From: Squalus acanthias | Lineage: Eukaryota | DNA: 64,000 bases | NCBI GenBank assembly: GCA_030390025.1 | Contig: CM059432.1 | Span: 19,222,001 to 19,286,000, forward strand | Direction: 5' to 3' | Part shown: positions 2,696-56,236 of the stretch, one piece after another | Layout: each line of letters starts with the position of its first letter | How positions within the stretch are numbered: the first letter of the stretch is position 1 | Translations under genes and position numbers: made by a program | Notes under the pieces: model-generated | Told to the model about the DNA's origin: nothing | Databases searched by the model: none | What the model saw: the letters and a program-made list of their open reading frames with translations, nothing else

Positions 2696-4932
2696 TAGAA
2701 TCATAAAATGGTTACAGCACGGAAGAAGGCCATTCGGCCTGTCGAGCCCATGCTGGCTCTCTGCAAGAGCACTTCAGCTAGTCCCACTTCCCCACCCTTT
2801 CCCCGTAGCTCTGCAAATTTTTTCCTTCAGATACTTATCCAACTCCCTTTTGAAAGATAAGATTGAGTCTGCCTCCATCACCCTTTTAGGAAGTGCATTC
2901 CAGATCTTAACCACTCGCTGCGTAATTTTTTTTTTCTTATGTTGTCTTTGGTTCTTTTACTAATCACTTTAAATCTGTGTCCTCTGGTTCTTGACCCTTC
3001 TGCCAATGGGAACAGTTTCTCTCTATCTACTCTGTCTAGACCCCTCATGATTTTAAACACCTCTATCAAATCTCCTCTGAATCTTCTCTGCTCCATGGAG
3101 AACAACCCCAGCTTCTCCAGTCTATCAACATAACTGAAGTCCCTCATTCCTGAAATCATTCTCGTAAATCTTTTCTGCACCTTCTCTTGAAGGGATATTT
3201 ACTAGTCCTAGCCCCTTTGGGGCTATCCCGGATCAGACGTATTTCTCAGACGTTCACTTTCAACTAAAGTTTGAGGTAGCCGAATCCTAAAGTCGCTTAA
3301 TTGGGTCTAAAGGTCCGGGCTATCTCTCCCTAAAGGAAAAGAACAACCCAAGAATGTTACCATCCTCCAGATAGCGCTTTTAATAAGTTTAGCTAGACTG
3401 TAACGTCCCGGATATTATGAGGGTCCGGAAAACTCCCTCAGAATTCTGTAACTTTTCACCAAAGAGTGTACAGAGATTGAATTCACGAGTTATTGATACA
3501 GAAGACTTATGTGAGACAATTCTAAAAATATATAGAGATTTATTAAAAGAACCGACATGCAATTTACAGTTGGTGAATCAGTCAATCGCAACGTTAACAG
3601 TTCTGAAAAGAGAAAAAGTACTATCTTATTATTAACAGAGAATCTTACTTTTAAATCTTAACTTTGCTACAGTATTACAGTTCTTAAAATTTTCTATACA
3701 GGATATCCATCAATATCAAATACCTTTGATCCCCGAGGTACAAAGATTTGGAGACCACAGAGCCACCTCTGTGGTCAAAAATTGCCTTGCCCGATTAAAG
3801 CGAGTCTGCTATCCCATTTGAAACTTCAATATTTATACCCTTTTCCAGTTGTATTTCCTTTTAGGTTTTCTGCTGATGCAAGTCAATTATCCCTATTCAT
3901 CTTTCTGCCGACCTCTGTAATTCTTACTGCCACATCAGCTTGTAATATTCCAGAATCTTGTCTCATCTCCAGGTGTTCTGAGTTTACCATATAGAATGAT
4001 GTGAAGGGCAGGTGTTCCTTATTTTATGTGCCATCTTTACAAAGTTTAAATTAAAACACCTTAATCCAGTATGGACCATTGTTTTTGTTCCCAAAGGTCA
4101 GCCTGTCGGAGCCATGCACCTTCTGTTTCAATAAGGTTATTTATTCAGGGTCAACAACTGTTTTATCTCAATAGCCAGAATTCTTTCATAGCTATTTCAT
4201 GGTTAGGTCTCTAAATTTCCAAACCCAGTTTGTCATATTTTAATAAGGCCAGAATTCTTTCATAAGATAGTGTATTTTTCTGAATAGGTTATATGGCTTA
4301 TTCCTTCACACTCTCAGGCCTTCACATCCTTCCTAAAATGTGGTGCCCAGAATTGGACACAATACTCCAGTTTGGGCCGAACCAGTGTTTTATACAGGTT
4401 CATCATAATTTCCACACTTTTGTACTCTATACCTCTATTTATAAAACCCAGGATCCCGTAAGCCTTTTTAGCTGCTTTCTCAACCTGCCCTGCCACCTTC
4501 AACGATTTGTACACGCATACCCCTAGGTCTCTCTGTTCATGCACCCACTTTAGGATTGTATCATTTAGTTTATATATCCTTTCCTCATTCTTTCTACCAA
4601 AATGTATCACTTCACACGTTTCTGCATTAAATTTCATCTGCCACATGTCCGCCCATTTCACCAGCCTGTCTATATCTTCCTGAAGTCTATCACTCTCTAC
4701 TTCATTGTTCACTATACTTCCACGTTTTGTGTCATCTGCAAATTTTGAAATTGTGCCCTGTGCACCCATGTCCAAGTCATTAATATATATCAAGAAAAGC
4801 AGTGGCCCTAGAACTGACCCCTGGGGAACACTACTGTATACCTTCCTCCAGTCCGAAAAACAACCGTTCACCCCTACTCTCTGTTTCCTGTCACTTAGCC
4901 AATTTCGTATCCATGCTGCCACTGTCCCTTTT
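2696..4932 (-). mobile_element. 5'-truncated CR1 LINE (RT C-terminal half and 3' UTR), split by a solo LTR at 3188-4310
   Basis: ORFs 4314-4922 (VPQGSVLGP, KFADDTK, YCVQFWAP) and 2878-3180 (RFTRMI, LGLFS) are consecutive parts of CR1 ORF2. Confidence 0.9.
3188..4310 (-). mobile_element. Solo LTR (family A), 1123 bp
   Basis: Termini TGAAGG...CCTTCACA, 4-bp TSD CTCT (3184-3187 and 4311-4314), cleanly interrupts a CR1. TATA-like motif (~3835) and AATAAA (3539-3544) on the minus strand. Homologous to 6544-12011. Confidence 0.8.
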
Positions 4933-5235
4933 ATTCTGTTCTACTCCCTCACAAACTGAACTGTTCCCTATATGCATCACTGTCCATGTAAACTAGTTAT
5001 ATTGAAATTTAAATTGTCTGTTTCACCTCTCTCTCTCTTCGAGCCTGAGTCTATTGCTACCTATTTCTATGACACCTGATGAGCTTTCCAGTTAGATGTG
5101 CTATCTTCACCAAGTTATTAACAATTCACATCACATGTAGCCATGACAACAGGAAAGATATTTGTTCTCAAGAAATATATTATAATGGGACAGCAATGTA
5201 ATACCAGTTTCATAAAATGCCATATACTGGACACA

Positions 5236-5714: not shown

Positions 5715-7029
5715 GGATCCAACAATTGCGGTATTCCTGCTTTCACTCGCACCACCGTGGGAAAGCACCAGCTGGAGACCTGGAACTTCTGCACAGGATG
5801 GGAGGGAAGGTAACAAAAAAAAATATCGGAGGGAGAGTCACCTCCAAGGCCACTCTTACACCACATTACCTGTACCAATTTTTATGTTACACTGGTGTCG
5901 GCAACAGCACAGGTTGCTCGCTTTGCCCATCAGTCCAACGAATGGAACACAGTGAGTGGGAACACATACCATCTGTGCATTTACCTGAAACTGTTTCATA
6001 TTCATGTTAACAATCATCGATCTGCAATAAATTGAAATGTCCAAGCAAGGTAGCTGTTGGTAAAATAGGGTTCCTTTCTAAGATTTCCTTACCCCAACTG
6101 GCACGCAGGGGGCATACTGCACGACACTGCGTTACACTTCTGTGAACGAGTGCTCATGGGCAATGTAACAGATCATAAAATTAAATGTTAATTGGCAGCA
6201 GATTGGAACTGCGTTCAATTATTATGTAGTCGGCTAAACCTTAATAGTGCATGTTGCTCGCCCTTATTCTTCTCCGTGTTAGGTTAATTAAGATGCATAA
6301 ATTTTTGTCATTTCCAAGCGCTCACACGTAATGGACTCCATTAAGTTTATTTATGATGTAAAAAAAATATCGCAATGGCACCTTGCCAGTTCGGAAAGGA
6401 AATGTTGTTGCCTACAGGAATGTTTTATGTAACCTGGTCAGGGAGCAAAATCCCAGTGAGCTGTTCAAGGTTGGTACAGGAAATGTCAGAGCCAAGCCTT
6501 GAACTGTGCTCCCATATTTGTGGAGGCTCTTTAGCTGCTCTCTTGCAAAGGAATGAGCCATATTCCAGAAAAATATACCATCCTATGAACAGAATTCTGA
6601 CATTATTAAAATATGAAAAACTGGGGTTAAAAATCTAAAAGCCTCAACAACACAAGCTGTAAATACAGGCTTCTGAGATAAGATGAAGTGTTAACACAAA
6701 GCTGTAAACACCATAAAAGCTTTTGAAATGGGAAATGATTATTGACACAGAGACAATGGCCCTATTGAAGAAGCAAAGGCTTGCTTACAAGGAGTCTGCA
6801 GTTTGGAAACAACACAATAGCTATACTTAGTTTAAAGTGTTAAAAGCAAACACTTCGAACAGGAACACAGAACATTAAAAAACCATGTGCCTTTGTAAAA
6901 GTAACATCAAATGAAACAGGACACTTGTAGTGTCCCCCACCCTTCCTCCTCCTCTAACCTAAAGGAGGTGAGTGACTATCAGGTAAGCTCTTTTTTGTTC
7001 TAGTTTAATCTGCAAGTTAGCTGGAGGGG

Positions 7030-7956
7030 ATGGCAGGGGAGGCAGTGAAATGTTCCTCCTGCAGAATGTTTGAGGTGAGGGAAGCCGTAGGTGTCCCTGC
7101 TGATTACACCTGTGGGAAGTGCACCCATCTCCAGCTCCTCGAAAACCGTGTTAGGGAACTGGAGCTGGAGCTGGATGAACTTCGGATCATTCGGGAGGCA
7201 GAGGAGGTCATAGATAGAAGCTTCAGGGATGTAATTACTCCAAAGCATGAAGATAGATGGGTGACAGTGAGAGGGGCTAGGAGGAAGCAGTCAGTGCAGG
7301 GATCCTCTGTGGTCGTTCCCCTCAGTAACAGGTATACCGCTTTGAATACTGTTGAGGGGGACGACTTACCAGTGGTAAGCCATGGTGACTGGATCTCCGG
7401 CGCTGGGTCCGTCCCTGTGGCTCAGAAGGGAAGGGGGGAGAGCAGGAGAGCAATAGTTATTGGGGACTCAATAGTCAGAGGGACAGATAGGAGGTTCTGT
7501 GGCAGCAAAAGAGACTCACAGATGGTATGTTGCCTCCTGGGTGCCAGGGTCCGTGACGTCTCGGACCGTGTTTTCAGAATCCTCAAAGGGGAGGGGGAAC
7601 AATCACAAGTCGTGGTACACATCGGTACCAACGACATAGGTAGGAGAAGGGACGGGGATTTAAAACAGGAATTTAGGGAGCTAGGTTGGAAGCTGAAAGC
7701 CAGTACAAACCATGTTGTAATTTCTGGTTTGTTGCCGGTGCCACGTGCTAGCGAGTTGAGGAACAGGGAGAGAGTGCAGATAAACACGTGGCTGCAGGGA
7801 TGGTGTAGCGGGGAGGGTTTCAGTTATGTGGATAATTGGAGCACATTCTGGGGAAGGTGGGACCTGTACAAACAGGATGGTTTGCACCTGAACCAGAGGG
7901 GCACCAATATCCTGGGAGGGAAATTTGCTACGGCTCTTCGGGGGGGTTTAAACTAA
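7030..7956 (+). CDS. CR1 ORF1p: zinc finger/leucine zipper plus SGNH (GDSL-type) esterase domain, 308 aa
   Basis: CSSC...CGKC, heptad LLENRVRELELELDEL, GDSIVRG, HIGTND and DGLH motifs; intact ORF. Confidence 0.92.
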   Translation: MAGEAVKCSSCRMFEVREAVGVPADYTCGKCTHLQLLENRVRELELELDELRIIREAEEVIDRSFRDVITPKHEDRWVTVRGARRKQSVQGSSVVVPLSNRYTALNTVEGDDLPVVSHGDWISGAGSVPVAQKGRGESRRAIVIGDSIVRGTDRRFCGSKRDSQMVCCLLGARVRDVSDRVFRILKGEGEQSQVVVHIGTNDIGRRRDGDLKQEFRELGWKLKASTNHVVISGLLPVPRASELRNRERVQINTWLQGWCSGEGFSYVDNWSTFWGRWDLYKQDGLHLNQRGTNILGGKFATALRGGLN

Positions 7957-10852
7957 TTTGTCAGGGGGATGGGAAAAAGGGCTGTAGTCCAGGAGCCAGT
8001 GGTGAGTGTAGGGAGGTACTGAGGAGGGTATCAAGGTCGCAGGAATGTACCGGCAGACAGGAAGATGGCTTGAAGTGTGTCTACTTCAATGCAAGGAGCA
8101 TCCGGAATAAGGAAGGAGAACTTGGAGCGTGGATTGGTACTTGGGACTACGATGTGGTGGCCATTACGGAGACATGGTTAGAACAGGGACAGGAATGGTT
8201 GTTGGAAGTTCCGGGGTATAGATGTTTCAGTAAGAGTAGGGAAGTTGGTAAGAAAGGTGGAGGAGTAGCATTGTTAATCAAGGATAGTTTAACAGCGGCA
8301 GAAAGGCAGTTCGAGGGGGATCTGCCGTCTGAGGTAATATGGGCTGAAGTTAGAAATAGGAAAGGAGCGGTCACGTTGTTAGGAGTTTTCTACAGGCCCC
8401 CAAATAGTAATAGAGATGTGGAGGAAGAAATTGCAAAGCAGATTATGAATAGGTGTGGAGGTCACAGAGTAGTTGTCATGGGTGACTTCAACTTTCCAAA
8501 TATTGATTGGAACCTTTATAGGTCAAACAGTTCGGATGGGATAGTTTTTGCACAGTGTGTGCAGGAGGGTTTCCTGACACAATATGTGGATAGGCCGACA
8601 AGAGCTGGGGCCACGTTGGATTTGGTACTGGGTAATGAACCGGGCCAAGTGTTTGATTTGTATGTGGGAGAGCACTTTGGAGATAGTGACCACAATTCGG
8701 TAACTTTCACTATTGCAATGGAGAGGGATAGGGCCATACGGCAGGGCAGGGTTTATAATTGGGGGAGGGGTAATTATGATGCGATTAGGCAAGAATTAGG
8801 GAGTATAAGATGGGAACAGAAACTATCAGGGAAAGGCACAAACGAAAAGTGGAGCTTTTTCATGGAGCAATTACTGCATGTCCTTGATAGGTATGTCCCT
8901 GTCAGGCAGGGAGGAAATGGCCGAGTGAGAGAACCATGGTTCACAAAAGAGGTTGAATGTCTAGTCAAGAGGAAAAAGGAAGCGTATGTAAGGATGAGAA
9001 AACAAGGTTCAGTTGGGTCGATTGAGGGGTACAAGGTAGCAAGGAATGAGCTAAAAAAAGAGCTTAGGAGAGCTAGGAGGGGGCATGAGAAGTCCTTGGC
9101 GGGTCGGATCAAGAAAAACCCCAAGGCCTTTTACTCTTATGTGAGAAATAAAAGAATGACCAGGGTGAGGGTAGGGCCGGTCAAGGACAGTAGTGGGAAC
9201 TTGTGCATGGAGTCAGAAGAGATAGGAGAGGTGATGAATGAATACTTTTCGTCAGTGTTCACCGAGGAGAGGGGCCATGTTCTTGAGGATGAGAGTGTGA
9301 TAAAGGTGGATAGGCTGGAGGTGGTAGATGTTCTGAGGGAAGATGTTTTAGCAATTTTGAAGAACCTGAGGGTCGATAAGTCCCCTGGGCCAGATGGGAT
9401 ATATCCTAGGATTCTTTGGGAGGCAAGGGAGGAGATTGCAGAGCCTCTGGCTTTGATCTTTGGGTCCTCACTGTCCACGGGGATGGTGCCAGAGGACTGG
9501 AGAGTGGCGAATGTTGTTCCTCTCTTCAAGAAAGGAAATAGGAATGACCCTGTTAATTATAGGCCGGTTAGTCTTACTTCGGTGGTTGGTAAGATAATGG
9601 AAAAGGTCCTGAGGGATAGGATTTATGACCATTTGGAAAGGGGCAACTTAATCAGGGATAGTCAACAGGGATTCGTGAAGGGTAAGTCTTGCCTAACAAA
9701 TTTGATTGAATTCTTTGAGGAGGTAACTAAGTGTGTAGACGAAGGTAGAGCAGTTGATGTCGCATACATGGATTTTAGTAAGGCGTTTGATAGGGTTCCC
9801 CATGGTCGGCTCATGAAGAAAGTACGGAGTTGTGGGATAGAGGGAAATTTGGTCGATTGGATAAGTAACTGGCTATCTCATAGAAGGCAGAGGGTGGTGG
9901 TGGATGGAGCATTTTCGGACTGGAGACCAGTTACCAGCGGTGTGCCACAGGGGTCAGTGCTGGGTCCTCTGCTGTTTGTGATTTTTATCAATGACTTGGA
10001 GGAGGGGACTGAAGGGTGGATCAGTAAATTTGCTGATGACACCAAGATTGGTGGAGCAGTGGATGAGGTGGAGGGCTGTTGTAGGCTGCAAAGAGACATT
10101 GATAGGATGCAGAGCTGGGCCGAAAAATGGCATATGGAATTTAACCCTGATAAGTGCGAGGTGATTCATTTTGGTAGGGCAAATTTGAATAAGGATTACA
10201 GGGTCAACGGCAGGGTTCTGAGGAACGTGGAGGAACAGAGGGATCTGGGGGTTCATATCCACAGATCTCTGAAGGTTGCCACTCAAGTGGATAGAGCAGT
10301 AAAGAAGGCCTATGGTGTGTTGGCGTTTATTAACAGAGGGTTTGAGTTTAAGAACCGTGAGGTTATGCTGCAACTGTACAGGACCTTGGTGAGACCACAT
10401 TTGGAATATTGTGTGCAGTTCTGGTCACCTCACTATAGGAAGGACGTGGAAGCATTGGAAAGAGTGCAAAGGAGATTTACCAGGATGCTGCCTGGTTTGG
10501 GGGGGAGGTCTTATGAGGAAAGATTGAGGGAGTTGGGGCTTTTCTCTTTAGAGAGGAGGAGGATGAGAGGCGACTTAATAGAGGTTTATAAGATGATGAG
10601 GGGGATAGATAGAGTGGATGTTCAGAGACTATTTCCTCGGGTAGAGGCAGCTGTTACAAGGGGCATAATTATAAGGTGCATGGGGGGAGATATAGAAGGG
10701 ATGTCCGAGGTAGATTCTTTACTCAGAGAGTGGTTGGGGTGTGGAATGGACTGCCTGCTGTGATAGTGGAGTCGGACACTTTAGGAACTTTCAAGTGGTT
10801 ATTGGATAAGCACATGGAGCACACCAGAGTGATAGGGAGTGTGATAGCTTGA
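7947..10852 (+). CDS. CR1 ORF2p: APE endonuclease plus reverse transcriptase (1-bp deletion near 10662 shifts the C-terminus)
   Basis: YFNARSI, ITETW, YRPP, GDFN, SDH (EN); YRPVSLTS, VPQGSVLGP, FADD (RT). Lies in the -1 frame relative to ORF1 with no ATG upstream of the EN domain. Confidence 0.92.
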
Positions 10853-12043
10853 TCTGGGTCTCGGACAATGCTCGGCACAACATCGAGGGCCGAAGGGCCT
10901 GTACTGTGCTGTACTGTTCTATGTTCTATGTTCTATATATACAACCAATTGAAGTAGCTAAGAAATGCATGGAACACCCTGGTTGAAGTGGGTTTGTTTT
11001 ATATATTGTAAATATGATACCGACAGAACACTTTGAAGATATAATATCAATAGATGTACCAAGCAATCACATTGTGTTTGTATTGAACTTGGCAGAGTTG
11101 GGAGACATGACGTCTGCTTATAACCAGTTAAGTGGATATTAAGAATTCAATAGAAGACCTCGTAAGAATGGCATCAAATAGATAAATCTGTTCAACCATA
11201 TTTGATGATAAGTTATGAAACACCTATACAGCAGACAGGATTCTGAGAGTTAGCAGCTGAACTAACAGTAAGAATAGAAAGAAGTCAACAGAAAGACTGA
11301 CTAGAGATAATTAGCTTACATCAGCAGAAAACTTCAAAGGAGATACCACTGCAAAAAGAGTATAAGATATGGGATTTTTAAATGGGAAAACAGAAGTCGC
11401 TGGAAAGGACAGGCGATTCTCAGCTTCAGAGGCAGGCTCTATAAGTTTTTAACTCTTTAGAGTCTCGGGGATCAAATGGTACTTTAATTGATTTTGGTGG
11501 ATATTCTGGATTAAGAATAAGACTTAGAAATATAAAAATGTAATGAAGTTAAGATTTGAGAATAAGGATCTCTGAGAATAGAATTGTAAGCTATTTGTAT
11601 TTTGAACTGTTAAAGTTGTGATTGACTCATCAACTGTTAACTAAATGTCGGTTCCTTAATAGATCTATATATTTTTAGAATTGTCTCACAGAGTATTTCT
11701 GTATCAACCTTGCGAACTCAAATCTCTGTACACTCTTTTGTGAGGAGTTGCAGAATTCTGGGGGGGTTTCCAGACCCTCATAATATCCGGAAGGTTACAG
11801 TCTAGTTAAACTTATTAAAAGTGCTATCTGGAGGACGGTAATATATTCAAGTCATTTCTTTCCTTTAGGGAGAGATAGTCTGGACCTTTAGACCCAATTA
11901 AGCGTCTTATACGATTCGGCTATCTCTAACTTTAGTTGAAGGGGAACGTCTGGGTAATACGCCTGATCTGGGGTAGCCCAAGAAGGGCTAGGACTTGTAA
12001 TTATCCCTTCACTCTCACACTCTTAGATAAGGTGCAAGAAAAG

Positions 12044-12302: not shown

Positions 12303-13162
12303 GATAATGAAGCCGTCCATGCCCACATGCAACAAGACCTGGACGATGTTCAGGCTTGGACTGATAAGTGGCAGGTAAAATTTGTGCCACAGAAGTGCCA
12401 GGCAATGACTATCTCCAACAAACGAGAGTCTAACCACCTCCCCTTGACATTCAATGGCATTACCATCGCTGAATCCCCCACTATCAACATCCTGGGGTCA
12501 TCATTAACCAAAAACTTAACTGGACCAGCCACATAAATACTGTGGCAACAAGAGCAGGTCAGAGGCTAGGTATTCTGCAGCGAGTGTCTCACCTCCTGAC
12601 GCCCCAAAGCCTTTCCACCATCTACAAGGCACAAGTCAGGAGTGTGATGGAATACTCTCCACTTGCCTGGATGAGTGCAGCTCCAACAACACTCAAGAAG
12701 CTCGACACCATCCAGGACAAAGCAGCCCGCTTGATTGGCACCCCATCCACCACCTTAAACATTCACTCCCTCCACCCCTGGCGTACCGTGGCTGCAGTGT
12801 GTACCATCTACAAGATGCACTGCAGCAACTCACCAGGGCTTCTTCGGCAGCACCTCCCAAACCCACGACCTCTTCCACCTAGAAGGACAAGGGCAGCAGG
12901 CGCATGGGAACACCACCACCTCCAAGTTCCCCTCCAAGTCACACACCATCGTGACTTAGAAGTAGATCGCCGATCCTTCATCGTTGCTGGGTCAAAATCC
13001 TGGAACTCCCTACCTAACAGCACTGTGGGAGTACCATCATTACATGGACTGCAGCAGTTCAAGAAGGCGGCTCACCACCACCTTCTCAAGGGCAACTAGG
13101 GATGGGCAATAAATGCTGGCATTGCCAGCGACGCCCTGATCCCATAAACAAATTTTAAAAAA
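12303..13162 (+). mobile_element. 5'-truncated LINE of the second lineage (RT C-terminus and tail)
   Basis: QQDLDDVQAW..KWQVKF, TIYKAQVRSVMEYS, WNSLP; GCAATAAATGCTGG tail then A-rich end. Confidence 0.85.
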
Positions 13163-15520
13163 GTCTTAGACTGGGTATTATGTAATGAGAAAGGATTAAT
13201 TAGCAATCTTGTTGTGCGAGGCCCCTTGGGGAGGAGCGATCATAATATGATAGAATTCTTCATTAAAATGGAGAGTGAAGTAATTGACTCAGAGACTAGG
13301 ATCCTGAATTTAAATAAAGGAAACTATGATGGTATGAGGCACGAGTTGGCTAGGATGGATTGGGGAATGTTACTTAAAGGGTTGACGGTGGATAGGCAAT
13401 GGCAAACATTTAAAGATCGCATGGATGAACTACAGAATTTGTTCATCCCTGTTTGGCATAAAAATAAAACAAAAAAGGTGATTCAACCGTGGCTAACAAG
13501 GGAAATTAGGGATAGCATAAGATCCAAGGAGAGGACATATAATTTGGCCAGAAAAAGCAGCAAACCTGAGGATTGGGCGCAGTTAAGGATTCAGCAAAGG
13601 AGGACAAAGGGATTAATTAAGAGGGGGAAAATAGAGTATGAGAGTAAGCTTGCAGGGAACATAAAAACTGACTGTAAAAGCTTCTATAGATATGTAAGGA
13701 GAAAAAGATTGGTGAAGTCAAGTGTAGGTCCCTTGCAGTCAGAATCAGGGGAATTTATAATGGGGAACAAAGAAAAATGGCAGACCAATTAAATACATAC
13801 TTTGGTTCTGTCTTCACAAAGGAGGACACAAATAACCTCCCAGAGATGTCGGGGAATATAGGGTCTAATAAGAGGGAGGAACTGAATGAAATCAGTATTT
13901 GTAGGGAAATGGTGTTAGGTAAATTGACAGGATTGAAGGCCGATAAATCCCCAGGGCCTGATAATCTACATCCTAGGGTACTTAAGGAAGTGGCCCTAGA
14001 AATAGTAGATGCATTGCTGGTCATCTTCCAAAATTCTATAGACTCTGGAACAGTTCCCATGGATTGGAGGATAGCTAATGTAACCCCACTATTTAAAAAA
14101 GGTGGTAGAGAAAAAACGGGGAATTATAGTCTGACATCGGTAGTGGGGAAAATGCTAGAGTCCATTATAAAAGATGTAATAGCAGAGCACTTGGAAAACA
14201 ATGACAGGATCGGACAAAGTCAACATGGATTTACAAAAGGTAAATCATGCTTGACTAATCTACTGGAATTTTTTGAGGATGTAACTGGTAGAATAGATAA
14301 GGGAGAACAAGTGGATGTGGTGTATTTGGACTTTAAGAAGGCTTTCGATAAGGTCCCGCATAAGAGATTAGCATGCAAAGTTAAGGCACACGGGATTGGG
14401 GGTAAGGTACTGTCTTGGATAGAGAACTGGTTGGCAGACAGGAAGCAAAGAGTTGGAATAAATGGGTCTTTTTCCAAGTGGCAGGCAGTGACTAGTGGGG
14501 TACCGCAGGGATCGGTGCTAGGACCCCAGTTATTCACAATATATATTAATGATCTAGACAAGGGAACTAGATGTAATATCTTCAAGTTTGCAGACGACAC
14601 AAAGCTGGGTGGGCGTGTATGCTGTGAGGAGGATGCAGAGAAACTCCAGTATGATTTGGACAGGTTGGGTGATTGGGCAGATGCATGGCAAATACAGTAT
14701 AATGTGGATAAATGCGAGGTTATCCACTTTGGTGGCAAAAACAGGAAGACAGATTATTATCTGAACGGCAATAGATTGGGAAAAGGGGAAGCGCAATGAG
14801 ACCTGGGTGTCATTGTGCACCAGTCGCTGAAGTGCAAGTGCAGCAGGCGGTTAAGAAGGCAAATGGTATGTTGGCCTTCATAGCAAGAGGATTCGAGTAC
14901 AGGAGCAAGGATGTCTTGCTGCAGTTGTACAGGGCCTTGGTGAGACCACACCTTGGAGTATTGTGTGCAGTTTTGGTCACCTCATCTGAGGAAGGATGTT
15001 CTTGCCATGGAGAGAGTGCAGCGAAGATTCACCAGACTGATACCTGGGATGGCAGGAATGACGTATGAGGAGAGATTGGGTCGATTAGGCTTATATTCAC
15101 TAGAGTTTAGAAGAATGAGAGGGGATCTCATTGAAACTTATAAAATTCTAACAGGACTAGACAGACTAGATGCAGGGAGGATGTTCCCGATGGCGGGGGA
15201 GTCCAGAACCAGGGGTCACAGTCTAAGGATAAGGGGTAAGCCATTTAGGACTGAGATGAGGAGGAATTTCTTCACCCAGAGAGTGGTGAACCTGTGGAAT
15301 TCTCTACCACACAAGGCAGTTGAGGCCAATTCATTAAATATATTCAAGAAGAAGTTAGATATATTTCTTAAGGCTAAAGGGATCAAGGGATATGGGGAGA
15401 AAGCAGGGACAGGGTACTGAATTTGGATGATCAGCCATGATCTCATTAAATGGCGGAGCAGGCTCGAGGGGCCAAATGGCCTACTCCTGCTCCTATCCTC
15501 TTTGTTTCTATGTTTCTATG
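13163..15520 (+). mobile_element. 5'-truncated CR1 LINE, frameshifted ORF2
   Basis: ORFs 13214-13792, 13777-14799 and 14953-15420 give successive EN-end/RT segments; (TGTTTCTA)n tail. Confidence 0.92.
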
Positions 15521-15890: not shown

Positions 15891-17725
15891 AGAACATAAG
15901 AAATAGGAGCAGGAGTAGGCCAATCGGCCCATCGAGCCTGCTCCGCCATTCAATAAGATCATGGCTGATCTGATCCTAACCGCCAATCTACTATCTATCA
16001 CAGAAACATCTCCTGCATCTAACAGAATTGCACACACGAAATAGGAGCAGAATCAGGCTACACAGTCCCTGGGCCCGCTCCACTACCCACAGGGCCATGA
16101 CCGATCCGAACCTAGACTCATGTCCAAATTCCTGCCCGCTCCCCGTAACCCTTAATGCCCTTTACTTCTAGGAAACTGTCTATTTCTGTTTTAAATTTAA
16201 TCAATGTTGTAGCTTCTACAGCTTTTTGTGGCAGCATATTCCATGGACCTACCACCCTCTGAGTGAAGTAGTTCCTCCTCATCTCAGTTTTGAAAGAGCA
16301 GCCCCTTATTCTAAGACTATGTCCCCTAGTTCTCGTCTCACCCGTCATCGGGAACATCCTCCCCGCATCCACCCGATCCAACCCCTTCACAATCTTATAT
16401 GTTTCAATAAGATCGCCTCTCATTCTTCTGAACTCCAATGAGTAGAGTCCCAATCTACCCAACCTCTCCTCATATGACCACCCCCTCATCTCCGGGATTA
16501 ACCGAGTGAACCTTTTTTGCACTGCCTCGAGAGCAAGGATGTCTTTCCTTAAGTAAGGACACCAAAACTGTATGCAGTATTCCAGGTGCGGTCTCACCAA
16601 TACCTTGTACAACTGAAGCAATACCTCCCTATTTTTATATTCTATCCCCCTAGCAATGAAAGCCAACATTCCATTTGCCTTCTTAATCACTTGCTGCACC
16701 TGCATACTAACCTTTTGAGTTTCGTGCACCAGGACCCCCAGATCCCTTTGCACTTCAGTACTCTCCAGTTTCTTGCCATTAAGATAATAAATTGCTCTAG
16801 GATTTTTCCTGCCAAAGTGCATCACCTCACACTTTCCAGTGCTGTATTCCATCTGCCAAATCTCTGCCCACTTACTTAGCCTGTCTATGTCCCCTTGCAG
16901 GTTTTTTATGTCCTCCTCACTCACTACTTTCCCTCCCATCTTTGTATCATCTGCAAATTTTGATATGTTACACTTGGTCCCTTCCTCCAAATCGTTAATA
17001 TAGATTGTGAAGAGTTGGGGACCCAGCACTGACCCCTGTGGAACACCACTAGTTACTGATTGCCAGTCTGAGAATGAACCATTTATCCCAACTCTTTGCT
17101 TTCTGTTAGATAGCCAATCCTCTATCCATGCCAGAATATTACCCCCAATCCCGTGATTTTTTACCTTAAGCAATAATCTTTTGTGTGGCACCTTGTCAAA
17201 TGCCTTTTGGAAGTCTAAATACACTACGTCCACTGGTTCCCCTTTATCCACTCTATATGTTACTTCCTCAAAGAACTCCAGCAAATTTGTCAAACATGAC
17301 TTCCCCTTCGTAAAACCATGCTGACTTTGTCCTATTAAATTATGATTATCCAAATGTCTTGTTACTGTTTCCTTAATAATGGACTCCAAAATTTTACCTA
17401 CCACAGATGTTAGGCTAACCGGTCTATAGTTACCAGCCTTCTGTCTACTGCCCTTTTTAAATAAGGGTGTTACATTAGCAGTTTTCCAGTCTGCCGGGAC
17501 CTTAGCGGAATCCAGGGAGTTTTGAAAAATTATTACCAATGCATCTACAATCCCTACCGCCACTTCCTTCAAGACTCTAGGATGTAAGCCATCAGGTCCA
17601 GGTGATTTATCCGCCTTGAGTCCCATTATTTTACCGAGTACCACTTCCTTAGTGATTTTGATCGTGTTTAGCTCCTCTCCCCCTATAGCCCCCTGTTTGT
17701 CCAGTGTTGGGATATTACCATCTTC
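15891..17725 (-). mobile_element. 5'-truncated CR1 LINE with uninterrupted RT region and duplicated 3' UTR
   Basis: ORF 16118-17755 carries all RT motifs through to the natural stop; CR1-type tail at 15891. Confidence 0.92.
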
Positions 17726-17871
17726 TGGCATGTCAGGCACTAAAGCAGTATTCAAAATACTGGAAAATGTACCAGGGAAAGAGGGTAATTTTCAACTTCA
17801 CCAGCTGGGCAGTACCCTGGCCAAGTAGATTGCTGTTCATTATAGAACCCGTCCAATTTTCAAATCAATTT

Positions 17872-27622: not shown

Positions 27623-28514
27623 TTTTATAGTACGGGAAGCAGTGGTTGCTGGGTAAGTGATTAATTTTTACCTATATATAAGTTGGGCGGTTCCTAAACC
27701 CGAGACACTACACTTGTAGTGTCCCCCACCCTTCCTCCTCCTCTAACCTAAAGGAGGTGAGTGACTATCAGGTAAGCTCCTTTTTGTTCTAGTTTAATCC
27801 GCAAGTTAGCTAGAGGGGATGGCAGGGGAGGCAGTGAAATGTTCCTCCTGCAGAATGTTTGAGGTGAGGGACGCCGTCGGTGTCCCTGCTGATTACACCT
27901 GTGGGAAGTGCACCCATCTCCAGCTCCTCGAAAACCGTGTTATGGAACTGGAGCTGGAGCTGGATGAACTTCGGATCATTCGGGAGGCAGAGGAGGTCAT
28001 AGATAGAAGCTTCAGGGATGTAATTACTCCAAAGCATGAAGATAGATGGGTGACAGTGAGAGGGGCTAGGAGGAAGCAGTCAGTGCAGGGATCCTCTGTG
28101 GTCATTCCCCTCAGTAACAGGTATACCGCTTTGAATACTGTTGAGGGGGACGACTTACCAGTGGTAAGCCATGGTGACCGGATCTCCGGCGCTGGGTCCG
28201 TCCCTGTGGCTCAGAAGGGAAGGGGGGAGATCAGGAGAGCAATAGTTATTGGGGACTCAATAGTCAGAGGGACAGATAGGAGGTTCTGTGGCAGCAAAAG
28301 AGACTCACGGATGGTATGTTGCCTCCCGGGTGCCAGGGTCCGTGACGTCTCGGACCGTGTTTTCAGAATCCTCAAGGGGGAGGGGGAACAATCACAAGTC
28401 GTGGTACACATCGGTACCAACGACATAGGTAGGAGAAGGGACGGGGATTTAAAACAGGAATTTAGGGAGCTAGGTTGGAAGCTGAGAGCCAGTACAAACC
28501 ATGTTGTAATTTCT
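27386..28514 (+). mobile_element. Young CR1 copy 2: 5' UTR and ORF1, broken by an inversion
   Basis: ORF1 from 27819 is near-identical to 7030 up to VVIS, then switches abruptly at 28515. Confidence 0.92.
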
Positions 28515-29510: not shown

Positions 29511-32500
29511 ACATAGAAACATAGAACAGTACAACACAGTACAGGCCCTTCGGCCCTTGATGTTGTGCCGAGCATTGTCCGAGACCAAGATCAAGCTATC
29601 CCACTCCCTATCACTCTGGTGTGCTCCATGTGCTTATCCAATAACCGCTTGAAAGTTCCTAAAGTGTCCGACTCCACTATCACAGCAGGCAGTCCATTCC
29701 ACACCCCAACCACTCTCTGAGTAAAGAATCTACCTCGGACATCCCTTCTATATCTCCCCCCATGCACCTTATAGTTATGCCCCCTTGTAACAGCTGCCTC
29801 TACCCGAGGAAATAGTCTCTGAACATCCACTCTATCTATCCCCCTCATCATCTTATAAACCTCTATTAAGTCGCCTCTCATCCTCCTCCGCTCCAAAGAG
29901 AAAAGCCCTAACTCCCTCAATCTTTCCTCATAAGACCTCCCCCCCAAACCAGGCAGCATCCTGGTAAATCTCCTCTGCACTCTTTCCAATGCTTCCACGT
30001 CCTTCCTATAGTGAGGTGATCAGAACTGCACACAATATTCCAAATGTGGTCTCACCAAGGTCCTGTACAGTTGCAGCATAACCTCACGGTTCTTAAACTC
30101 AAACCCCCTGTTAATAAACGCCAACACACCATAGGCCTTCTTTACTGCTCTATCCACTTGAGTGGCAACCTTCAGAGATCTGTGGATATGAACCCCCAGA
30201 TCCCTCTGTTCCTCCACGTTCCTCAGAACCCTGCCGTTGACCCTGTAATCCTTATTCAAATTTGCCCTACCAAAATGAATCACCTCGCACTTATCAGGGT
30301 TAAATTCCATCTGCCATTTTTCGGCCCAGCTCTGCATCCTATCAATGTCTCTTTGCAGCCTACAACAGCCCTCCACCTCATCCACTACTCCACCAATCTT
30401 GGTGTCATCAGCAAATTTACTGATCCACCCTTCAGTCCCCTCCTCCAAGTCATTGATAAAAATCAAAAACAGCAGAGGACCCAGCACCGACCCCTGTGGC
30501 ACACCGCTGGCAACTGGTCTCCAGTCCGAAAATTTTCCATCCACCACCACCCTCTGCCTTCTATGAGATAGCCAGTTACTTATCCAATCGGCCAAATTTC
30601 CCTCTATCCCACAACTCCTTACTTTCTTTATGAGCCGACCATGGGGAACCTTATCAAACGCCTTACTAAAATCCATGTATACGACATCAACTGCTCTACC
30701 TTCATCTACACACTTAGTTACCTCCTCAAAGAATTCAATCAAATTTGTTAGGCAAGACTTACCCTTCACGAATCCGTGTTGACTATCCCTGATTAAGTTG
30801 CCTCTTTCCAAATGGTCATAAATCCTATCCCTCAGGACCTTTTCCATTATCTTACCAACCACCGAAGTAAGACTAACCGGCCTATAATTACCAGGGTCAT
30901 TCCTATTTCCTTTCTTGAAGAGAAAACAACATTCGCCACTCTCCAGTCCTCTGGCACCATCCCCGTGGACAGTGAGGACCCAAAGATCAAAGCCAAAGGC
31001 TCTGCAATCTCCTCCCTTGCCTCCCAAAGAATCCTAGGATATATCCCATCTGGCCCAGGGGACTTATCGACCCTCAGGTTCTTCAAAATTGCTAAAACAT
31101 CTTCCCTCAGAACATCTACCTCATCCAGCCTATCCACCTTTATCACACTCTCATCCTCAAGAACATGGCCCCTCTCCTCAGTGAACACTGACAAAAAGTA
31201 TTCATTCATCACCTCTCCTATCTCTTCTGACTCCATGCACAAGTTCCCACTACTGTCCTTGACCGGCCCTACCCTCACCCTGGTCATTCTTTTATTTCTC
31301 ACATAAGAGTAAAAAGCCTTGGGGTTTTTCTTGATCCGACCCGCCAAGGACTTCTCATGCCCCCTCCTAGCTCTCCTAAGCTCTTTTTTTAGCTCATTCC
31401 TTGCTACCTTGTACCCCTCAATCGACCCAACTGAACCTTGTTTTCTCATCCTTACATACGCTTCCTTTTTCCTCTTGACTAGACATTCAACCTCTTTTGT
31501 GAACCATGGTTCTCTCACTCGGCCATTTCCTCCCTGCCTGACAGGGACATACCTGTCAAGGACACGCAGTAATTGCTCCATGAAAAAGCTCCACTTTTCA
31601 TTTGTGCCTTTCCCTGATAGTTTCTGTTCCCATCTTATACTCCCTAATTCTTGCCTAATCGCATCATAATTACCCCTCCCCCAATTATAAACCCTGCCCT
31701 GCCGTATGGCCCTATCCCTCTCCATTGCAATAGTGAAAGTCACCGAATTGTGGTCACTATCTCCAAAGTGCTCTCCCACATACAAATCAAACACTTGGCC
31801 CGGTTCATTACCCAGTACCAAATCCAATGTGGCCCCACCTCTTGTCGGCCTATCCACATATTGTGTCAGGAAACCCTCCTGCACACACTGTGCAAAAACT
31901 ATCCCATCCGAACTGTTTGACCTGTAAAGATTCCAATCAATATTTGGAAAGTTGAAGTCACCCATGACAACTACTCTGTGACCTCCACACCTATTCAAAA
32001 TCTGCTTTGCAATTTCTTCCTCCACATCTCTATTACTATTTGGGGGCCTGTAGAAAACTCCTAACAACGTGACCGCTCCTTTCCTATTTCTAACTTCAGC
32101 CCATATTACCTCAGACGGCAGATCCCCCTCGAACTGCCTTTCTGCCGCTGTTAAACTATCCTTGATTAACAATGCTACTCCTCCACCTTTCTTACCACCT
32201 TCCCTACTCTTACTGAAACATCTATACCCCGGAACTTCCAACAACCATTCCTGTCCCTGTTCTAACCATGTCTCCGTAATGGCCACCACATCGTAGTCCC
32301 AAGTACCAATCCACGCTCCAAGTTCTCCTACCTTATTCCGGATGCTCCTTGCATTGAAGTAGACACACTTCAAGCCATCTTCCTGTCTGCCGGTACATTC
32401 CTGCGACCTTGATACCCTCCTCAGTACCTCCCTACACTCACCACTTGCTCCTGGACTACAGCCCTTTTTCCCATCCCCCTGACAAATTAGTTTAAACCCC

Positions 32501-32557
32501 CCCGAAGAGCCGTAGCAAATTTCCCTCCCAGGATATTGGTGCCCCTCTGGTTCAGGT
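29511..32557 (-). mobile_element. Young CR1 copy 2: ORF1 end, ORF2 and 3' tail (inverted)
   Basis: Near-identical to 7886-10936; frameshift ~30920 and stop ~30020; tail at 29511. Confidence 0.95.
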
Positions 32558-33717: not shown

Positions 33718-36441
33718 ATGCCCACCTTGAAGAAGTTCTGCTCTTCTCTTCGACGGGATCTCCGTTTGGCTCTTCAACCTTGTTCATCTTCACTGCTGTC
33801 AGTTTCCCTTCTCGTGTTTGATCAGGTATCTGCCAAGACTCGGTTTCACAGCCACATTACTTTCCTCAGCAACTGTCTCCGGTTCCGACTTATCCCACGT
33901 GGATTCCAACTAAACTTCCACCCTTCGTGTTTCGGATCCACCCAGGATTACAAATATCTCCAAGATATTTATCGTTCCTCGAACTACTGCTCTCGCCGCA
34001 TCTTGAGATCCGCGCTCAACGCCATGCGGCGCCACATGAACACTCTCGACCTCTCTCTTCAGCAGCACCGACGCACTCTATCTCAAAGCTGTCCGGGTCC
34101 ACACTTCCATTTCATCCTTAGACTCATCCGACGCTTCAACAAAAAACTTTTCTTCTTCCTTTCCGATGTCAAGGATCGCAAGCTTCAACAACTCTTGGAC
34201 ACTAATGCCCCTCCGGAACCTTCTTCCCCTTCACTTTCCTCTGACCCCCCCTTCTCCCAATCTCACCCCCTGCCGCGTTTTCACTATCCCCTCTGACCTT
34301 CCCCTCTCTGACCCCGAACGATCAGTCCTCAGCAAAGGCCTGAGCTGCATCCCCTTATGCCCCCACCTCAATGAATTTCGAGCTCGGCACGATGCTGAGC
34401 TCTTTTTCCGCCGCCTTCGTCTCCGTGCCCACTTCTCTGGCCAGGAGTCTTCCCCCCGCACGGCTGACCCTTTCTCCCGCTTTCAGAATTCTCGTTCCAC
34501 CTGGACCCCTCCCTCTGGCCTCTTACCCTCTCTAGATCTTTTCATTGCTAACTGCCGCTGTGACATCGGCCATCTCATTTTCTCCGCTCCCCTCACTCAC
34601 TCCAACCTACCTCCCTCTGAACTTGCAGCACTCCATTCTCTCCGATCCAACCCCGACATTGTCATTAAACCTGCTGACAAGGGTGGTGCTGTTGTTGTTT
34701 GGCGAACCGACCTCTATCTAGCGGAAGTTGAACGCCAACTCTCCGACACCTCCTCTTACCTCCACCTGGACCATGACCCCACTACTGAACATCAAGCCAC
34801 CGTTTCCAAGACTGTCACTGACCTCATCTCCTCTGGAGATCTTCCCCCCACGGCCGCCAACCTCATAGTTCCCCAACCCTGCACAGCCCGCTTCTACCTC
34901 CTTCCCAAGATCCACAAACAGGACTGCCCTGGTAGACCCATCGTTTCAGCCTGTTCTTGCCCCACGGTACTTATCTCTGCCTATCTCGACTCTATTTTTT
35001 CTCCCCTTGTCCAGTCTCTTCCCACCTACATCCGCGATTCCTCTGACGCCCTCCGCCACTTTAACAGTTTCCAGTTTCCTGGCCCCAACCACCTCCTTTT
35101 CACCATGGACGTACAATCCCTCTACACCACCATCCCCCACCAGGATGGCCTGAGGGCGCTCCGCTTCTTCCTTGAACAGAGGCCCAACCAGTCCCCATCC
35201 ACCGCCACCCTCCTCCGCCTGGCAGAACTTGTTCTCACATGGAACAACTTCTCCTTTGTCTCCACTCATTTCCTCCAAATCAAAGGTGTTGCTATGGGTA
35301 CCCGCATGGGTCCTAGCTATGCCTGCCTTTTCGTGGGATATGTGGAACACTCTTTGTTCCAGTCCTACTCGGGTCCGCTCCCTCACCTCTTTTTCCGGTA
35401 CATTGATGACTGTATCGGTGCCGTTTTCTGCTCTTGCCCTGAACTAGACAATTTCATTCACTTTGCCTCCAATTTCCACCCTTCCCTCACCTTCACATGG
35501 TCCATCTCCGACTCTTCCCTTCCCTTCCTCGACTTCTCCGTCTCCATCTCTGGGGATAGGTTATTGACTAGCATTCACTACAAGCCCACTGACTCCCACA
35601 GCTACCTGGACTACACTTCCTCCCACCCCGCCTCCTGTAAGGACTCTATTCCCTTCTCCCAGTTTCTCCGTCTCCGCCGCATCTGCTCCGACGATGCCAC
35701 CTTCCATACCAGTGCATCCGACATGTCTTCCTTTTTCCTCAACCGAGGATTCCCCTCTACCATGGTCGACACGGCCCTCGACCATGTCCGTTCTATCTCC
35801 CGCACTTCTGCCCTCACCCCTGCCCCTCCCTCCCGGAACCACGATAGAGTTCCCCTTGTCCTCACCTTTCACCCCACCAGCCTCCACATTCAACGGATCA
35901 TCCTCCGCCATTTCCGCCACCTCCAACGTGATCCCACCACCAAACATATCTTCCCCTCACCTCCCCTTTCAGCATTCCATAGGGACCGCTCCCTCCGAGA
36001 CACCCTAGTCCAATCCTCTATCACCCCCAGCACCCCTTCCCCCTCGCCCGGCACCTTCCCGTGCAAGCGCAGGAGATGCAACATCTGCCCTTATACATCC
36101 CCCCTTCCAGGTGAAACAGCGATTTACTTGTACTTCTTGCAATCTAGTATACTGTATTCGCTGCTCACGATGTGGTCTCCTCTACATTGGGGAGACCAAA
36201 CGCAGATTGGGTGACCGCTTTGCGGAACACCTCCGTTAAGTCCGTAAGGGTGACCCCGAGCTTCCGGTCGCCTGTCATTTTAATTCACCTCTCCACGCCC
36301 ACTCAGACCTCACCGTCCTCGGCCTCGTGCATTGTTCCACGGAAGCTCAGCGTAAACTCGAGGAACAGCACCCTCATCTTCCGATTAGGCACTTTACAAC
36401 CTTCCGGACTCAATATCGAGTTCAACAATTTCAGATCATAA
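33718..36441 (+). pseudogene. PLE reverse transcriptase plus GIY-YIG endonuclease, frameshifted
   Basis: KPADKG, FYLLPKIHK, GRPIVS, MDVQSLYT, GVAMG, RYIDD, FLD; Cys linker PCKRRRCNIC; LVYCIRCSRCGLLYIGET and GLN. Frameshifts at ~34250, ~36105 and ~36370. Confidence 0.88.
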
Positions 36442-41115: not shown

Positions 41116-43021
41116 ATGAGTGTTTCCAAACCGAAATCTGCTCCACGCTTCAATGAGGACTCCCTCCAAACTCTTGTGGATGCTGTCAGAGGGCGCAGGG
41201 AGTTTCTGTTCCCTCCCGATGGCCGGAGGAAGCCTCCTCAGCAAACCAAGGCAGCCTGGCTGCCCATTGCTGAGGAGGTCAGCGCAAGGTCCATTTGTTC
41301 ACGCACCTGGATCCAGTGCCAGAAATGGATTAATGATCTTCTGTGATCAGCAAAAGTGAGTATCACATCACACTTACCTTCACTCTGCTTCCCTTCTCTT
41401 CTCATTACCAGCACTCTGCTTTGTAAGCCTGCTCCTCCACATCCCACCTTACCCTTACTTACCTTGCACCCTAACCTATCCATCTCTCTCTCTGTACTGA
41501 ATCACCTCACCATCTTGCTATGCAGCCCTCACACTCGCTCTCACTGTTATGCAATGACACCAACTAAGAACGCACAGGGAGCTAGCTTCCTCTTGGCAGC
41601 TCACTCCATCTTCGTCTCCCTCAAAGCTTCTATGTTATGGATTCTTCACAATCACTGCATCGCTCTCGCTCAAACTCCACTTGTGTCCCTCCTTGCAGGA
41701 AAAGATAGCCCACAATAAGAGGAAGAGAGCACAGACAGGAGGAGGCACACCATCCCTCGCTACATTGACAAGTGCTGAGGAGGCTGCACACGAGATCGAT
41801 GGAGGTGGCGAGGAGCTGGAAGTGAGGGACAGAGAGATGGGCGCACTAGACGAAGCTGGTGACCGAATAGAGTTTCATCCCACTCATTTAGATTTAATGA
41901 TTGACTGCAATGGCATATGATGTTCATGAAGATTTGCTTTGTATCATCTGCACAAAAGGATGTGTCTGCTACATAAAAATCAGATGTCTAACTCATGCCT
42001 TTACTCTCCCACAGGACCATCGAGCGCCCCCGTCCCCACTGTCCAGGAGGAAGAGCCAGATGACTCCTCAGAGGAGCCTGCAGCCTCTGAGGGAGCAGCA
42101 TCACCAGGACTCAGCACCAGCGCAGATACGCACACCTCGGCGGGGCCCTCACGATTTAGAGTAGTGTTGTCACCTGGTGTATCACAGCTCACAAGTGAGA
42201 ATCAGCAAATGGTGGAGACAGCGACAGTAGTGGAGAGTCCTCGTCGGAGGTCACAGGACTCTCCTAGCTCTGCTCAGCTGCATTTAGACTGTGCCTCTGG
42301 GGCCATCCAGAAAGAGAGCAGTTCTGGAACTCCAGGAACAAGTGCAGGAGTCTCTGACAGGGTTTGCATCCATGGTAACTGTGAGTGTACAGAGAATGGA
42401 GGAGTCCATCTCTAACATGAGCACTGAATTTGTGGCGGCAATGGCGCATGAATGTTCCGCCATGGAGAGGGTGGCAACCGCCATGGAGGACATAAGTCGC
42501 TAGGCTAACGAAAACATGGTGACTCTTCAAAATAGATTGTCTGCTATGGAGGAGAGATGGGCATCTATAGAGGAGAGACACCAGAGCTTCATGGACGTCC
42601 TTGTTATGAGGACTGCTAGTACAGATACGGGTCCTCATGGCCCCCCCGATCTGCAGCAAGGTGCTCTCCAGCCACTTGCTAGCACTGAAATGCGGCTGAC
42701 CCATGAGAGGGATGTTGGTGGCAGGCAACAAGGAAGTGTGGGCTCCTCTCCAAGCGCTCACACGACCATGCCACTGCAAAGCCCTCGCTCACAGACCCAC
42801 ATTGCACACCCACTGAAATGGCCGTCTCAGCCCCTTCACAGCCGCAGGAAGAGCAGACTGTTGCAGAGCCTTCCCAGGCTCCCAAACCCAGAGGACGCCC
42901 GCCAAAGGCGTCTAAGCAGGCGCAGCATCAAAGTCAGCAAGGTGCCTCTACATCTGCTGAAGCCACAGGGGAAGCATCACGTAGAAGCATGCGTAAGAGG
43001 AAGATAAAGCACATATGGTAG
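41116..43021 (+). pseudogene. Harbinger Myb/SANT-like gene, exons 41116-41355, 41699-41858, 42015-43021
   Basis: APRFNEDSLQTLVDAV...AW..IAEEV...RTWIQCQKWINDL; GT-AG introns; stops at 41344 and 42501 plus frameshifts; basic C-terminus RKRK. Confidence 0.85.
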
Positions 43022-43044
43022 CCACCTGTGGTTGAAGAGTAAGC

Positions 43045-44293
43045 TTACGCGAATCTGGCATGGATGAGTGCATCACTTACGCGACGGCCAGCAATGAGCT
43101 CGAGGGCTGCTGCATTGGTCACATCCGGACCCGCAAGGCATGCCTCCACCTCGTCCTTCTCATCCTCCTTCTCCTCCTCCTCCTCTTCTTCTGAGGATGC
43201 TCTGCGCTGAGCCACTTGTTCCTCAGGCAGCGGTAAGCCACGCTGCTGTGCGATGTTGTGCAGGGCACAGCAGATGACGATGATTCTGGACACCGTGGCT
43301 GGTGCATACTGCAGGGCTCCACCAGATCTGTCAAGGCATCCAAATCACATTTTGAAAGAGCCGATGGTTTGCTCTATGATACTTCTGGTGGAAAAGTGGC
43401 TCACATAGTACCGCTCCTCAGTCTCGTTTGATGGCCTCCTCATTGGTGTCATGAGCCACTTTTTCAGGGGGATAGCCCTTGTCGCCAAGTAGCTATCCGG
43501 AAAGTTGGGCTGGCGGATTGAAGAGCTAAGGCACAGTAGACTGGCGCAGGATGAAGGAGTCATGGCAACTGCCAGGGTACTTGGCGCAAACATGCTTGAT
43601 GATGTTCCTATGGTTACACACCAGCTGGACGTGAAGGGAGTGGAAGCCCTTGTCGTTCACAAAATCAGCTGGGTTGTGATGGGGTGCCCTAATGGCCACA
43701 TGTGTGCAGTCTACGACGCCCTGCATCCTTGGGAAGTCTGCCACATTTGCAAAGCCAACCACGCGCGCGGTTACACTTGCTTCATCCGTGGAGAAGTGGA
43801 TGTAATTGGGCGCCTTTGCAAAGAGGGCATCAGTGGCCTGCGTGATGCAGGTGTCTGTGGCCGACTGAGAGATGCCGCTGATGTCTGCTGATGATCCCTG
43901 GAAGGAGCCTGAAGCAAAGAAGTTGAGTGCGGTGGTGACTTTAACAGCCACTGGTAAGGAGTGTCCACCCGCTCCTCTGGGCTCCAGGTGTTGGTGCAGC
44001 ATTGTGCAGATGTCAGCGACAACCTCTCGCAGAAGTCTCAACCTCCTTTGGCACTGCTGCTCACTCATGTTGAGGAAGCTTATCCTCTGCCTGTAAACCA
44101 TGTGTTGGGGGTATCTCTTGCGGCGAGGTGCAGGCCTGCGCTGATACCTTCTGCCCTGTGCAGCATCAGGTGACTGAGGAGAAGGTTGGCGCTCCTGCTG
44201 TTGGTGCTGCTGCTGTGCCTGGTTGCGCTGCTGCCGTGGCTGCTCTTCCTCAGAATCTGACGACCAGGATGAGAGGATATAAATGGTTCCCAT
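43045..44293 (-). pseudogene. Harbinger DDE transposase (HARBI1-like family), frameshifted
   Basis: [62 protein letters not shown]. Confidence 0.9.
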
Positions 44294-50552: not shown

Positions 50553-50579
50553 TATAAGTCAGTATTAGTGCTAAGTCAT

Positions 50580-55966: not shown

Positions 55967-56236
55967 TTTTACGCAGCAAACACATGTGGCTGGCACGTGG
56001 AAATGAATGTCTGGCTGACCTTCTTAACACACCATACAGCATCTGTACAATAAACTGTGGTTTTCTATCACTCTCACCACCATCATTACAGATGAAAGGC
56101 GCCCTGACCCCTTACTGTGCAACTTCCATTTCTGAGCACACATAGGCCAACTCTTTGAATCTTTGCCATCGCTTTTCTTTAATACATTTATAATCATGAT
56201 GACAAACATTTGTATCAGATGAAAACACCCAAGTGA

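Follow-up and report, generated by a model that had tools for sequence, protein, structure and literature searches.

Situated in a 64,000-nucleotide stretch of the Squalus acanthias genome (assembly GCA_030390025.1, contig CM059432.1, positions 19,222,001 to 19,286,000 of the forward strand; the whole stretch is referred to here as the window) is a nearly full-length long interspersed nuclear element (LINE) of the CR1 type, which lies on the plus strand at ~6913-10936. Its second open reading frame (ORF2) is very probably translated by programmed -1 frameshifting on the slippery heptamer U_UUA_AAC at the end of the first (ORF1), which would give an ORF1-ORF2 fusion protein. The heptamer and the stop codon that adjoins it form a feature that is real and deeply conserved; it acts like a viral -1 site but does not pass the test for a canonical stimulator. 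A candidate programmed frameshift had been proposed here by a first-pass annotation made from the letters of the window, and it is now supported by the conservation of the site and by remote relatives whose ORF1 proteins have heptamer-compatible endings, the product itself being a prediction.

ORF1 terminates in GGT TTA AAC TAA, within which TTTAAAC (7947-7953) is read as T_TTA_AAC, and ORF2 lies in the -1 frame, open from 7836 to 10763 and reading F-K-L-I-C across the heptamer. This arrangement, an X_XXY_YYZ heptamer in zero-frame phase within the overlap of two ORFs, is that of a canonical -1 frameshift site. The ORF2 frame opens on TTG, and its earliest ATG, at 8445, comes 165 codons past the heptamer and behind NARS, ETW and YRPP, which we take to be catalytic motifs of the endonuclease; a protein begun at that ATG would lose most of this domain. 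On rereading, the in-phase heptamer immediately ahead of the TAA, the open -1 frame with its TTG start at 7836, the lack of an early ATG (the codon at the 8445 position is TTG, leucine, in a second copy of the element) and the G-runs that follow a spacer (7964-7968, 7971-7973, 7979-7981) were all as the first-pass annotation had described them. The label "coronavirus-type" that it had attached to the site holds for the heptamer, as U_UUA_AAC is the coronavirus shift site, but fits nothing beyond it. The window contains 115 stop-to-stop frames that reach 100 codons or more, and of these only ORF1 has an in-phase canonical heptamer at its end. The 9-mer TTTAAACTA is found at four places in the window where 0.64 would be expected, two of these occurrences (6828 and 39132) being unrelated. 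The heptamer is, as had been pointed out, the same in copy 2, but this copy differs from copy 1 at 47 of 3045 aligned bases (~98% identity) and was rejected as independent support: identity between such close copies is no evidence of selection, and since copy 3 ends ahead of the junction the window alone cannot show it.

The junction was followed into distant relatives. In a metagenome scan 47 loci were recovered, with identities of 26-55%, and the 27 that match near the end of ORF1 were examined, four of which stop before the junction. The heptamer was found at 16 of the 23 junction-reaching loci, as TTTAAAC in 15 and as GTTAAAC in one (L002), and 11 of the 16 keep an unbroken phase ahead of the stop, the other five being decayed copies. 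Across five lineages (25-53% identity) ORF1 has 23 invariant residues, 21 of which are encoded by mixed codons, whilst the final two are TTA and AAC in every lineage; in a control with ten sequences 11 residues were mixed and the same two codons were fixed. The background in ORF1 is 18 TTA codons out of 156 for leucine and 23 AAC out of 47 for asparagine. The heptamer is conserved beyond the needs of the amino acids, a mark of a frameshift site. Furthermore, at seven of the ten readable junctions (L002, L007, L008, L012, L013, L018 and L020) a stop shuts the -1 frame 3-5 codons ahead of the stop of ORF1 and the overlap is free of ATG, so that in these seven any shift must take place at the heptamer or right beside it; in the window, L009 and L017 the overlap measures 118 nt. 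The junction is gap-free in contigs from two other organisms, and among the rows listed four contig pieces with 13-22 differences align across the heptamer and break off at 7969-7974, within the G tract or shortly past it. Scans of viral contigs produced two weak matches and 36 motif matches, none fitting the ORF1 profile or ORF2, a scan of genome contigs for CR1 produced two weak bacterial matches only, and a plasmid search produced nothing. The phase, the codons and the stop are thus strongly kept across lineages, as the frameshift proposal had anticipated; the family has no upstream ATG, and no GT-AG joint into ORF2 appears among the joints listed.

The same signal can be read in the ORF1 proteins. 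The endings of 79 ORF1 homologues were counted by eye, and 51 end in L-N-stop, with I-N, G-N and L-N-L-N-G found once each; the remaining 25 mostly break off or shift frame earlier. Proteins ending in LN come from sharks, rays and skates (Mustelus, Stegostoma, Pristiophorus, Hemitrygon, Mobula, Hypanus and Leucoraja) and from a frog and turtles (Xenopus, Chrysemys, Lepidochelys and Pangshura), to which a hoatzin protein was added via its cluster. Gene models that slip to the -1 frame have F-K-L at the junction (rays P0041 and P0080, turtle P0070, and P0062, P0074 and P0077), and L-N in one frame with F-K-L in the other fits TTTAAAC. Four ray RefSeq isoform models (P0035, P0060, P0061 and P0080) include this ORF1 family. 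Two entries are filed under unexpected organisms and are probably host contamination: P0006, 73% identical to the window ORF1, under Pseudomonas aeruginosa, and P0063, a Xenopus-like ORF1, under the frog parasite Protopolystoma xenopodis.

More remote endings change in a manner that matches other heptamers. Of the 17 relatives returned by a search with P0071, 15 have GN, EN, or GN with one extra residue as their ending. A survey of the 150 best representatives of 50% clusters followed, and the 103 with the last esterase block near the C-terminus end in LN (48), GN (13), KN (3), SN (2), EN (1) and others (36). The terminal tripeptide is compatible with a canonical heptamer in 65 of the 103 (32 of 68 once similar tails are collapsed) vs 3.3% inside the domain. 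In the collapsed set the residue before LN has pyrimidine-ending codons only in ten cases and purine-ending only in none, and that before GN the reverse, none and eight (Fisher p=2e-5 against LN, a value that overstates independence, the rows being related); uncollapsed, the pyrimidine-only to purine-only counts are 34:1 for LN and 0:19 for GN. This switch matches the demand of U_UUA_AAC as opposed to G_GGA_AAC. Further clades have S/T/A/R-K-N several residues ahead of the stop, or end in FFR, GFR, FFH, GFC or LGF, and these endings would fit A_AAA_AAC, U_UUU_UUY and G_GGU_UUY. The heptamer rule has the exceptions GUU, GGA and GGU (PMC3542737; here and below, papers are cited for the portions of their text available to us), and tolerance of GUU and GGA as first triplets fits L002 and the EN endings. 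A tree of the ORF1 esterase places LN in three deep groups and the GN, KN and F endings in others, with the window ORF1 grouped with the hoatzin, turtle and Xenopus proteins (support 99/93). P0128 and P0150, from inside the LN clade of L002 and L012, end in SN, for which there is no canonical heptamer, and are either decayed or a tolerated variant.

A number of observations weigh against frameshifting. The fusion is a prediction from sequence, and the canonical companion of such sites, a 3' stem-loop or pseudoknot of good stability that begins 5-9 nt downstream, was not found. RNA downstream of the heptamer folds no better than shuffles, with z of +0.2 to +1.1 in the window and -1.3 to +0.5 at 13 junctions; a stem search of the 13 gave no shared hairpin, pseudoknot stem or long-range partner of the G tract, seven bird-type loci gave no covarying pairs (0/7 pairs with compensatory change), and Rfam gave only one chance-level match. 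A hairpin of 6-7 bp at ~+29 to +52 in L009, L018 and L020 was discarded, being absent from the seven-locus bird-type consensus. Seven of the 23 junction-reaching loci are without the heptamer, and 38 of the 103 representatives end in a tripeptide that is not canonical-compatible. The heptamers assigned to GN, KN, EN and F endings are deduced from protein, and the search profile contained the LN end in 11 of its 12 rows and may favour LN matches. Finally, there is an in-frame AUG before the endonuclease in L009, L013 and L017 (at +5) and in L002, L012 and L018 (at +56 to +77), so several relatives could reinitiate.

Such start codons bear on the possibility that ORF2 is reached by termination-reinitiation, in the manner of L1 or the caliciviruses, with the LN end being a protein motif. 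Reinitiation would begin at a nearby AUG in the bird-type families (TAG-NN-ATG, the +5 AUG being 2 nt past the stop) and at a near-cognate ATT (7956, overlapping the TAA) in the window. In L1 the AUG of ORF2 can be exchanged for any sense codon (PMC1965478), the window has a UGGGA 41 nt upstream, inside the 40-90 nt range of termination upstream ribosome-binding sites (TURBS; PMC3542737), and the failure to find RNA structure at the junctions also speaks for this route. However, it leaves unexplained why TTA and AAC are fixed while other invariant residues vary in codon, and why LN, GN and KN are swapped together with the matching preceding base. L007, L018, L020 and the window have no +5 AUG, the ATT overlap lacks conservation, and reinitiation of the TURBS type was rejected, with UGGGA present in just 3 of 13 junctions and the start codon at the stop not conserved. 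As the general route to ORF2, reinitiation is improbable, but it may act alongside frameshifting in the bird-type families. The loci of esterase LINEs without the heptamer are L004, L005, L006, L022, L025, L036 and L043, the first three of which form a separate clade in the esterase tree; L006 carries an ATGA stop-start overlap instead (1313-1318) and in L036 and L043 an ATG stands immediately ahead of the stop, features that point to reinitiation in this heptamer-less branch.

Two further explanations dispense with a ribosomal event at the junction. It is very improbable that TTTAAAC, the stop and the G tract make up some other nucleic-acid signal, such as a splice site, a protein-binding site or a DNA element, with ORF2 translated from an RNA that is spliced or begins internally. 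G tracts do act in splicing, and the 5' untranslated region (UTR) of the element has donor-like motifs (GTGAGT at 6968, GTAAGC at 6983) and, just before ORF1, an acceptor-like stretch (6990-7003), a pyrimidine tract with an AG ending at 7003. However, none of the eight YAG sites in the stretch from the stop to the endonuclease is pyrimidine-rich (fraction <=0.45), for which reason a splice acceptor ahead of the endonuclease was rejected, no GT-AG joint occurs among the 15 of 17 joints listed, all from contigs, and a frame-blind signal would not hold the codon phase or swap among heptamer-compatible endings. Slightly less credible again is transcriptional slippage, by which a base added at the junction (G7-T3-A3 here) would leave some RNAs already in frame. 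The window does have G7 directly ahead of the heptamer, and the ray models P0041 and P0080, together with P0074, run ORF1 straight into ORF2; yet G7 is not conserved, the T3 and A3 runs are very short, contigs (which drop rare variants) have no listed indel at the junction, and the simplest view of the read-through models is that they are decayed copies.

If programmed frameshifting is accepted, the question of its stimulator follows. A pseudoknot or three-tier G-quadruplex downstream is unsupported by folding and by G4 pattern checks, analyses of the kind that the first-pass annotation had proposed: the three-tier pattern occurs at none of 15 junctions, a two-tier pattern at 11, and a quadruplex in the RNAfold minimum free energy structure at three. 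What is conserved is the G tract itself. All 15 junctions have G at +11 and +12, and in 14 a run of five or six Gs starts at +11 (ten junctions), +10 (one) or +8 (three, in one clade), usually with GGG next; the chance of such a run beginning within a given 4-nt window is ~0.01. Position +11 is a third codon position of ORF2, where G makes up 31%, so that glycine coding alone is insufficient to account for the tract, and the G4Hunter score of the tract is in the top 0.1-10% of local windows. [quoted passage not shown] A two-tier G-quadruplex, or the heptamer and adjacent stop acting alone, would be somewhat less likely, the two being on a par, and a structure that escaped detection is unlikely.

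Under the frameshifting reading, the majority of ribosomes would halt at the TAA and release ORF1p of 308 amino acids, while a minority would slip in tandem from UUA AAC to UUU AAA and read on. The resulting fusion would be of ~1,240 amino acids (308 + 936 as copy 1 reads), with the predicted junction peptide G-G-L-N-L-I-C-Q, and would be Gag-Pol-like; as with the ratio of Gag to Gag-Pol, slippage would fix a high ORF1p:ORF2p ratio. The least certain step is the stimulator. More broadly, and with rather less than even confidence, we suggest that an animal-wide branch of esterase-bearing LINEs, the vertebrate CR1 included, may make ORF2 as a Gag-Pol-like fusion with swapped heptamers and a novel stimulator. 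The swapped set would comprise U_UUA_AAC, G_GGA_AAC, A_AAA_AAC, G_GAA_AAC and U-rich heptamers; for the U_UUA_AAC lineages the stimulator would be either the G tract, read by ORF1p or by a G-binding protein, or else a natural G-quadruplex.

The assignment to CR1 is based on an ORF1 with a cysteine cluster and an SGNH/GDSL esterase, an ORF2 with an APE endonuclease followed by a reverse transcriptase (RT), a short-repeat 3' tail without poly(A), and the presence of 5'-truncated copies (Table 1). Copies 1 and 2 are both decayed, each having a one-base ORF2 gap relative to the other (near 10659 in copy 1, past which its ORF2 tail is out of frame, and at the equivalent of 9519 in copy 2).

Table 1. 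Coordinates of the CR1 element, its ORF1-ORF2 junction and its copies in the window.
Feature	Position	Strand	Remarks
Residual 5' UTR	6913..7029	+	common to copy 3, blastn 98%
ORF1, 308 amino acids	7030..7956	+	ATG 7030; ends G-L-N-stop
Cysteine cluster, N-terminal in ORF1		+	cysteines conserved
SGNH/GDSL esterase within ORF1	~7456-7902	+	PF13472, E 4e-12
Slippery heptamer U_UUA_AAC	7947..7953	+	X_XXY_YYZ phase
ORF1 stop adjoining heptamer	7954..7956	+	TAA here; TAG or TGA in relatives
G-rich tract	7964..7981	+	GGGGG-AT-GGG (7964-7973) and GGG (7979-7981); 10-nt spacer; candidate stimulator
ORF2 if entered by -1 shift	7953..10763	+	frame open from 7836
ORF2 linker, ~40 amino acids		+	ahead of APE endonuclease
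APE endonuclease of ORF2	~8082-8693	+	PF03372, E 1e-21
Earliest in-frame ATG of ORF2	8445..8447	+	within endonuclease; TTG in copy 2
RT of ORF2	~9537-10253	+	PF00078, E 2e-35
3' short-repeat tail	10899..10936	+	(CTGTA)n, then (TGTTCTA)x3 at 10915-10936
Copy 2	29511..32557	-	5'-truncated just upstream of junction; heptamer 32490-32496
Copy 3	27702..28514	+	5' UTR and ORF1 only; stops short of junction

Other CR1 families, at ~65% DNA identity, are represented by ORF2 pieces at 50576-53092 (-), 16118-17791 (-), 13148-15420 (+) and 4314-4940 (-), and for none of the four was an ORF1 match found within the window. Elsewhere in the window, a frame of 724 codons at 34040-36214 (+) is reminiscent of a Penelope-type RT, and the frames at 41930-44335 and 54722-57316 are two copies of what we take, from their look, to be a Harbinger-type transposase with a partner ORF.

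Birds, turtles and crocodilians have CR1 as their main LINE (PMC8535693, PMC11835228), and in the literature searched a slippery site in CR1 is undescribed; Haas 1997, Kajikawa 1997 and Kapitonov and Jurka 2003 lay outside the search and may mention the site. No CR1 frameshift was found in the available portions of PMC4316615, PMC4255032, PMC8535693, PMC1925062, PMC3747384, PMC11835228, PMC5006619 and PMC5633606, and the searched part of a 2016 review of frameshifting (PMC5009743) does not mention CR1. According to the same review, natural frameshifting stimulated by a G-quadruplex was not known as of 2016, and the linear-motif case found is viral (PRRSV), so that a cellular G-tract stimulator would be new either way. 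Frameshifting, if true, may answer how CR1 LINEs make their reverse transcriptase. The enzyme would be joined to the esterase of ORF1, at a ratio that is low and fixed, and this would change models of the CR1 particle and the way in which ORF2 is annotated or expressed, and the conserved site offers a seven-base handle for direct tests.

The CR1 junction can be compared with several known systems. With the viral and retroviral -1 sites, in which X_XXY_YYZ is followed by a 3' structure at 5-9 nt (PMC3542737), CR1 shares the heptamer grammar, but it lacks a conserved stem-loop or pseudoknot stem and its host is a target-primed LINE. Another viral parallel is the PRRSV nsp2 -2/-1 frameshift, trans-activated by nsp1beta and a poly(C)-binding protein on a C-rich motif (PMC7939443, PMC5009743): in both no RNA structure is found and a short, conserved homopolymer-rich motif lies 11 nt past the shift site, the G5 of CR1 starting at +11 in 10 of 15 junctions. 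However, the CR1 motif is G-rich rather than C-rich and lies at +8 in one clade, and its binding protein is hypothetical. The notion of a LINE that uses frameshifting is not new, as ORF2 of the Dictyostelium elements TRE5-A and TRE3-A is said to need a -1 frameshift (PMC5911963), although the available portion of that text gives no heptamer, stimulator or experiment. Like CR1, these are APE-RT LINEs with two overlapping ORFs (PMC5911963, PMC5633606), but they are amoebozoan and tRNA-gene-targeted and have an ORF1 without homology to other LINE ORF1s. L1 resembles CR1 in having a bicistronic LINE RNA with a dispensable ORF2 AUG (PMC1965478), whereas its ORFs are non-overlapping and give separate proteins, and those of CR1 overlap in the -1 frame on the heptamer. 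Similar in layout are chicken CR1 and the turtle element PsCR1, each with two ORFs, a zinc-finger-like ORF1p and an endonuclease-RT ORF2p (PMC4316615).

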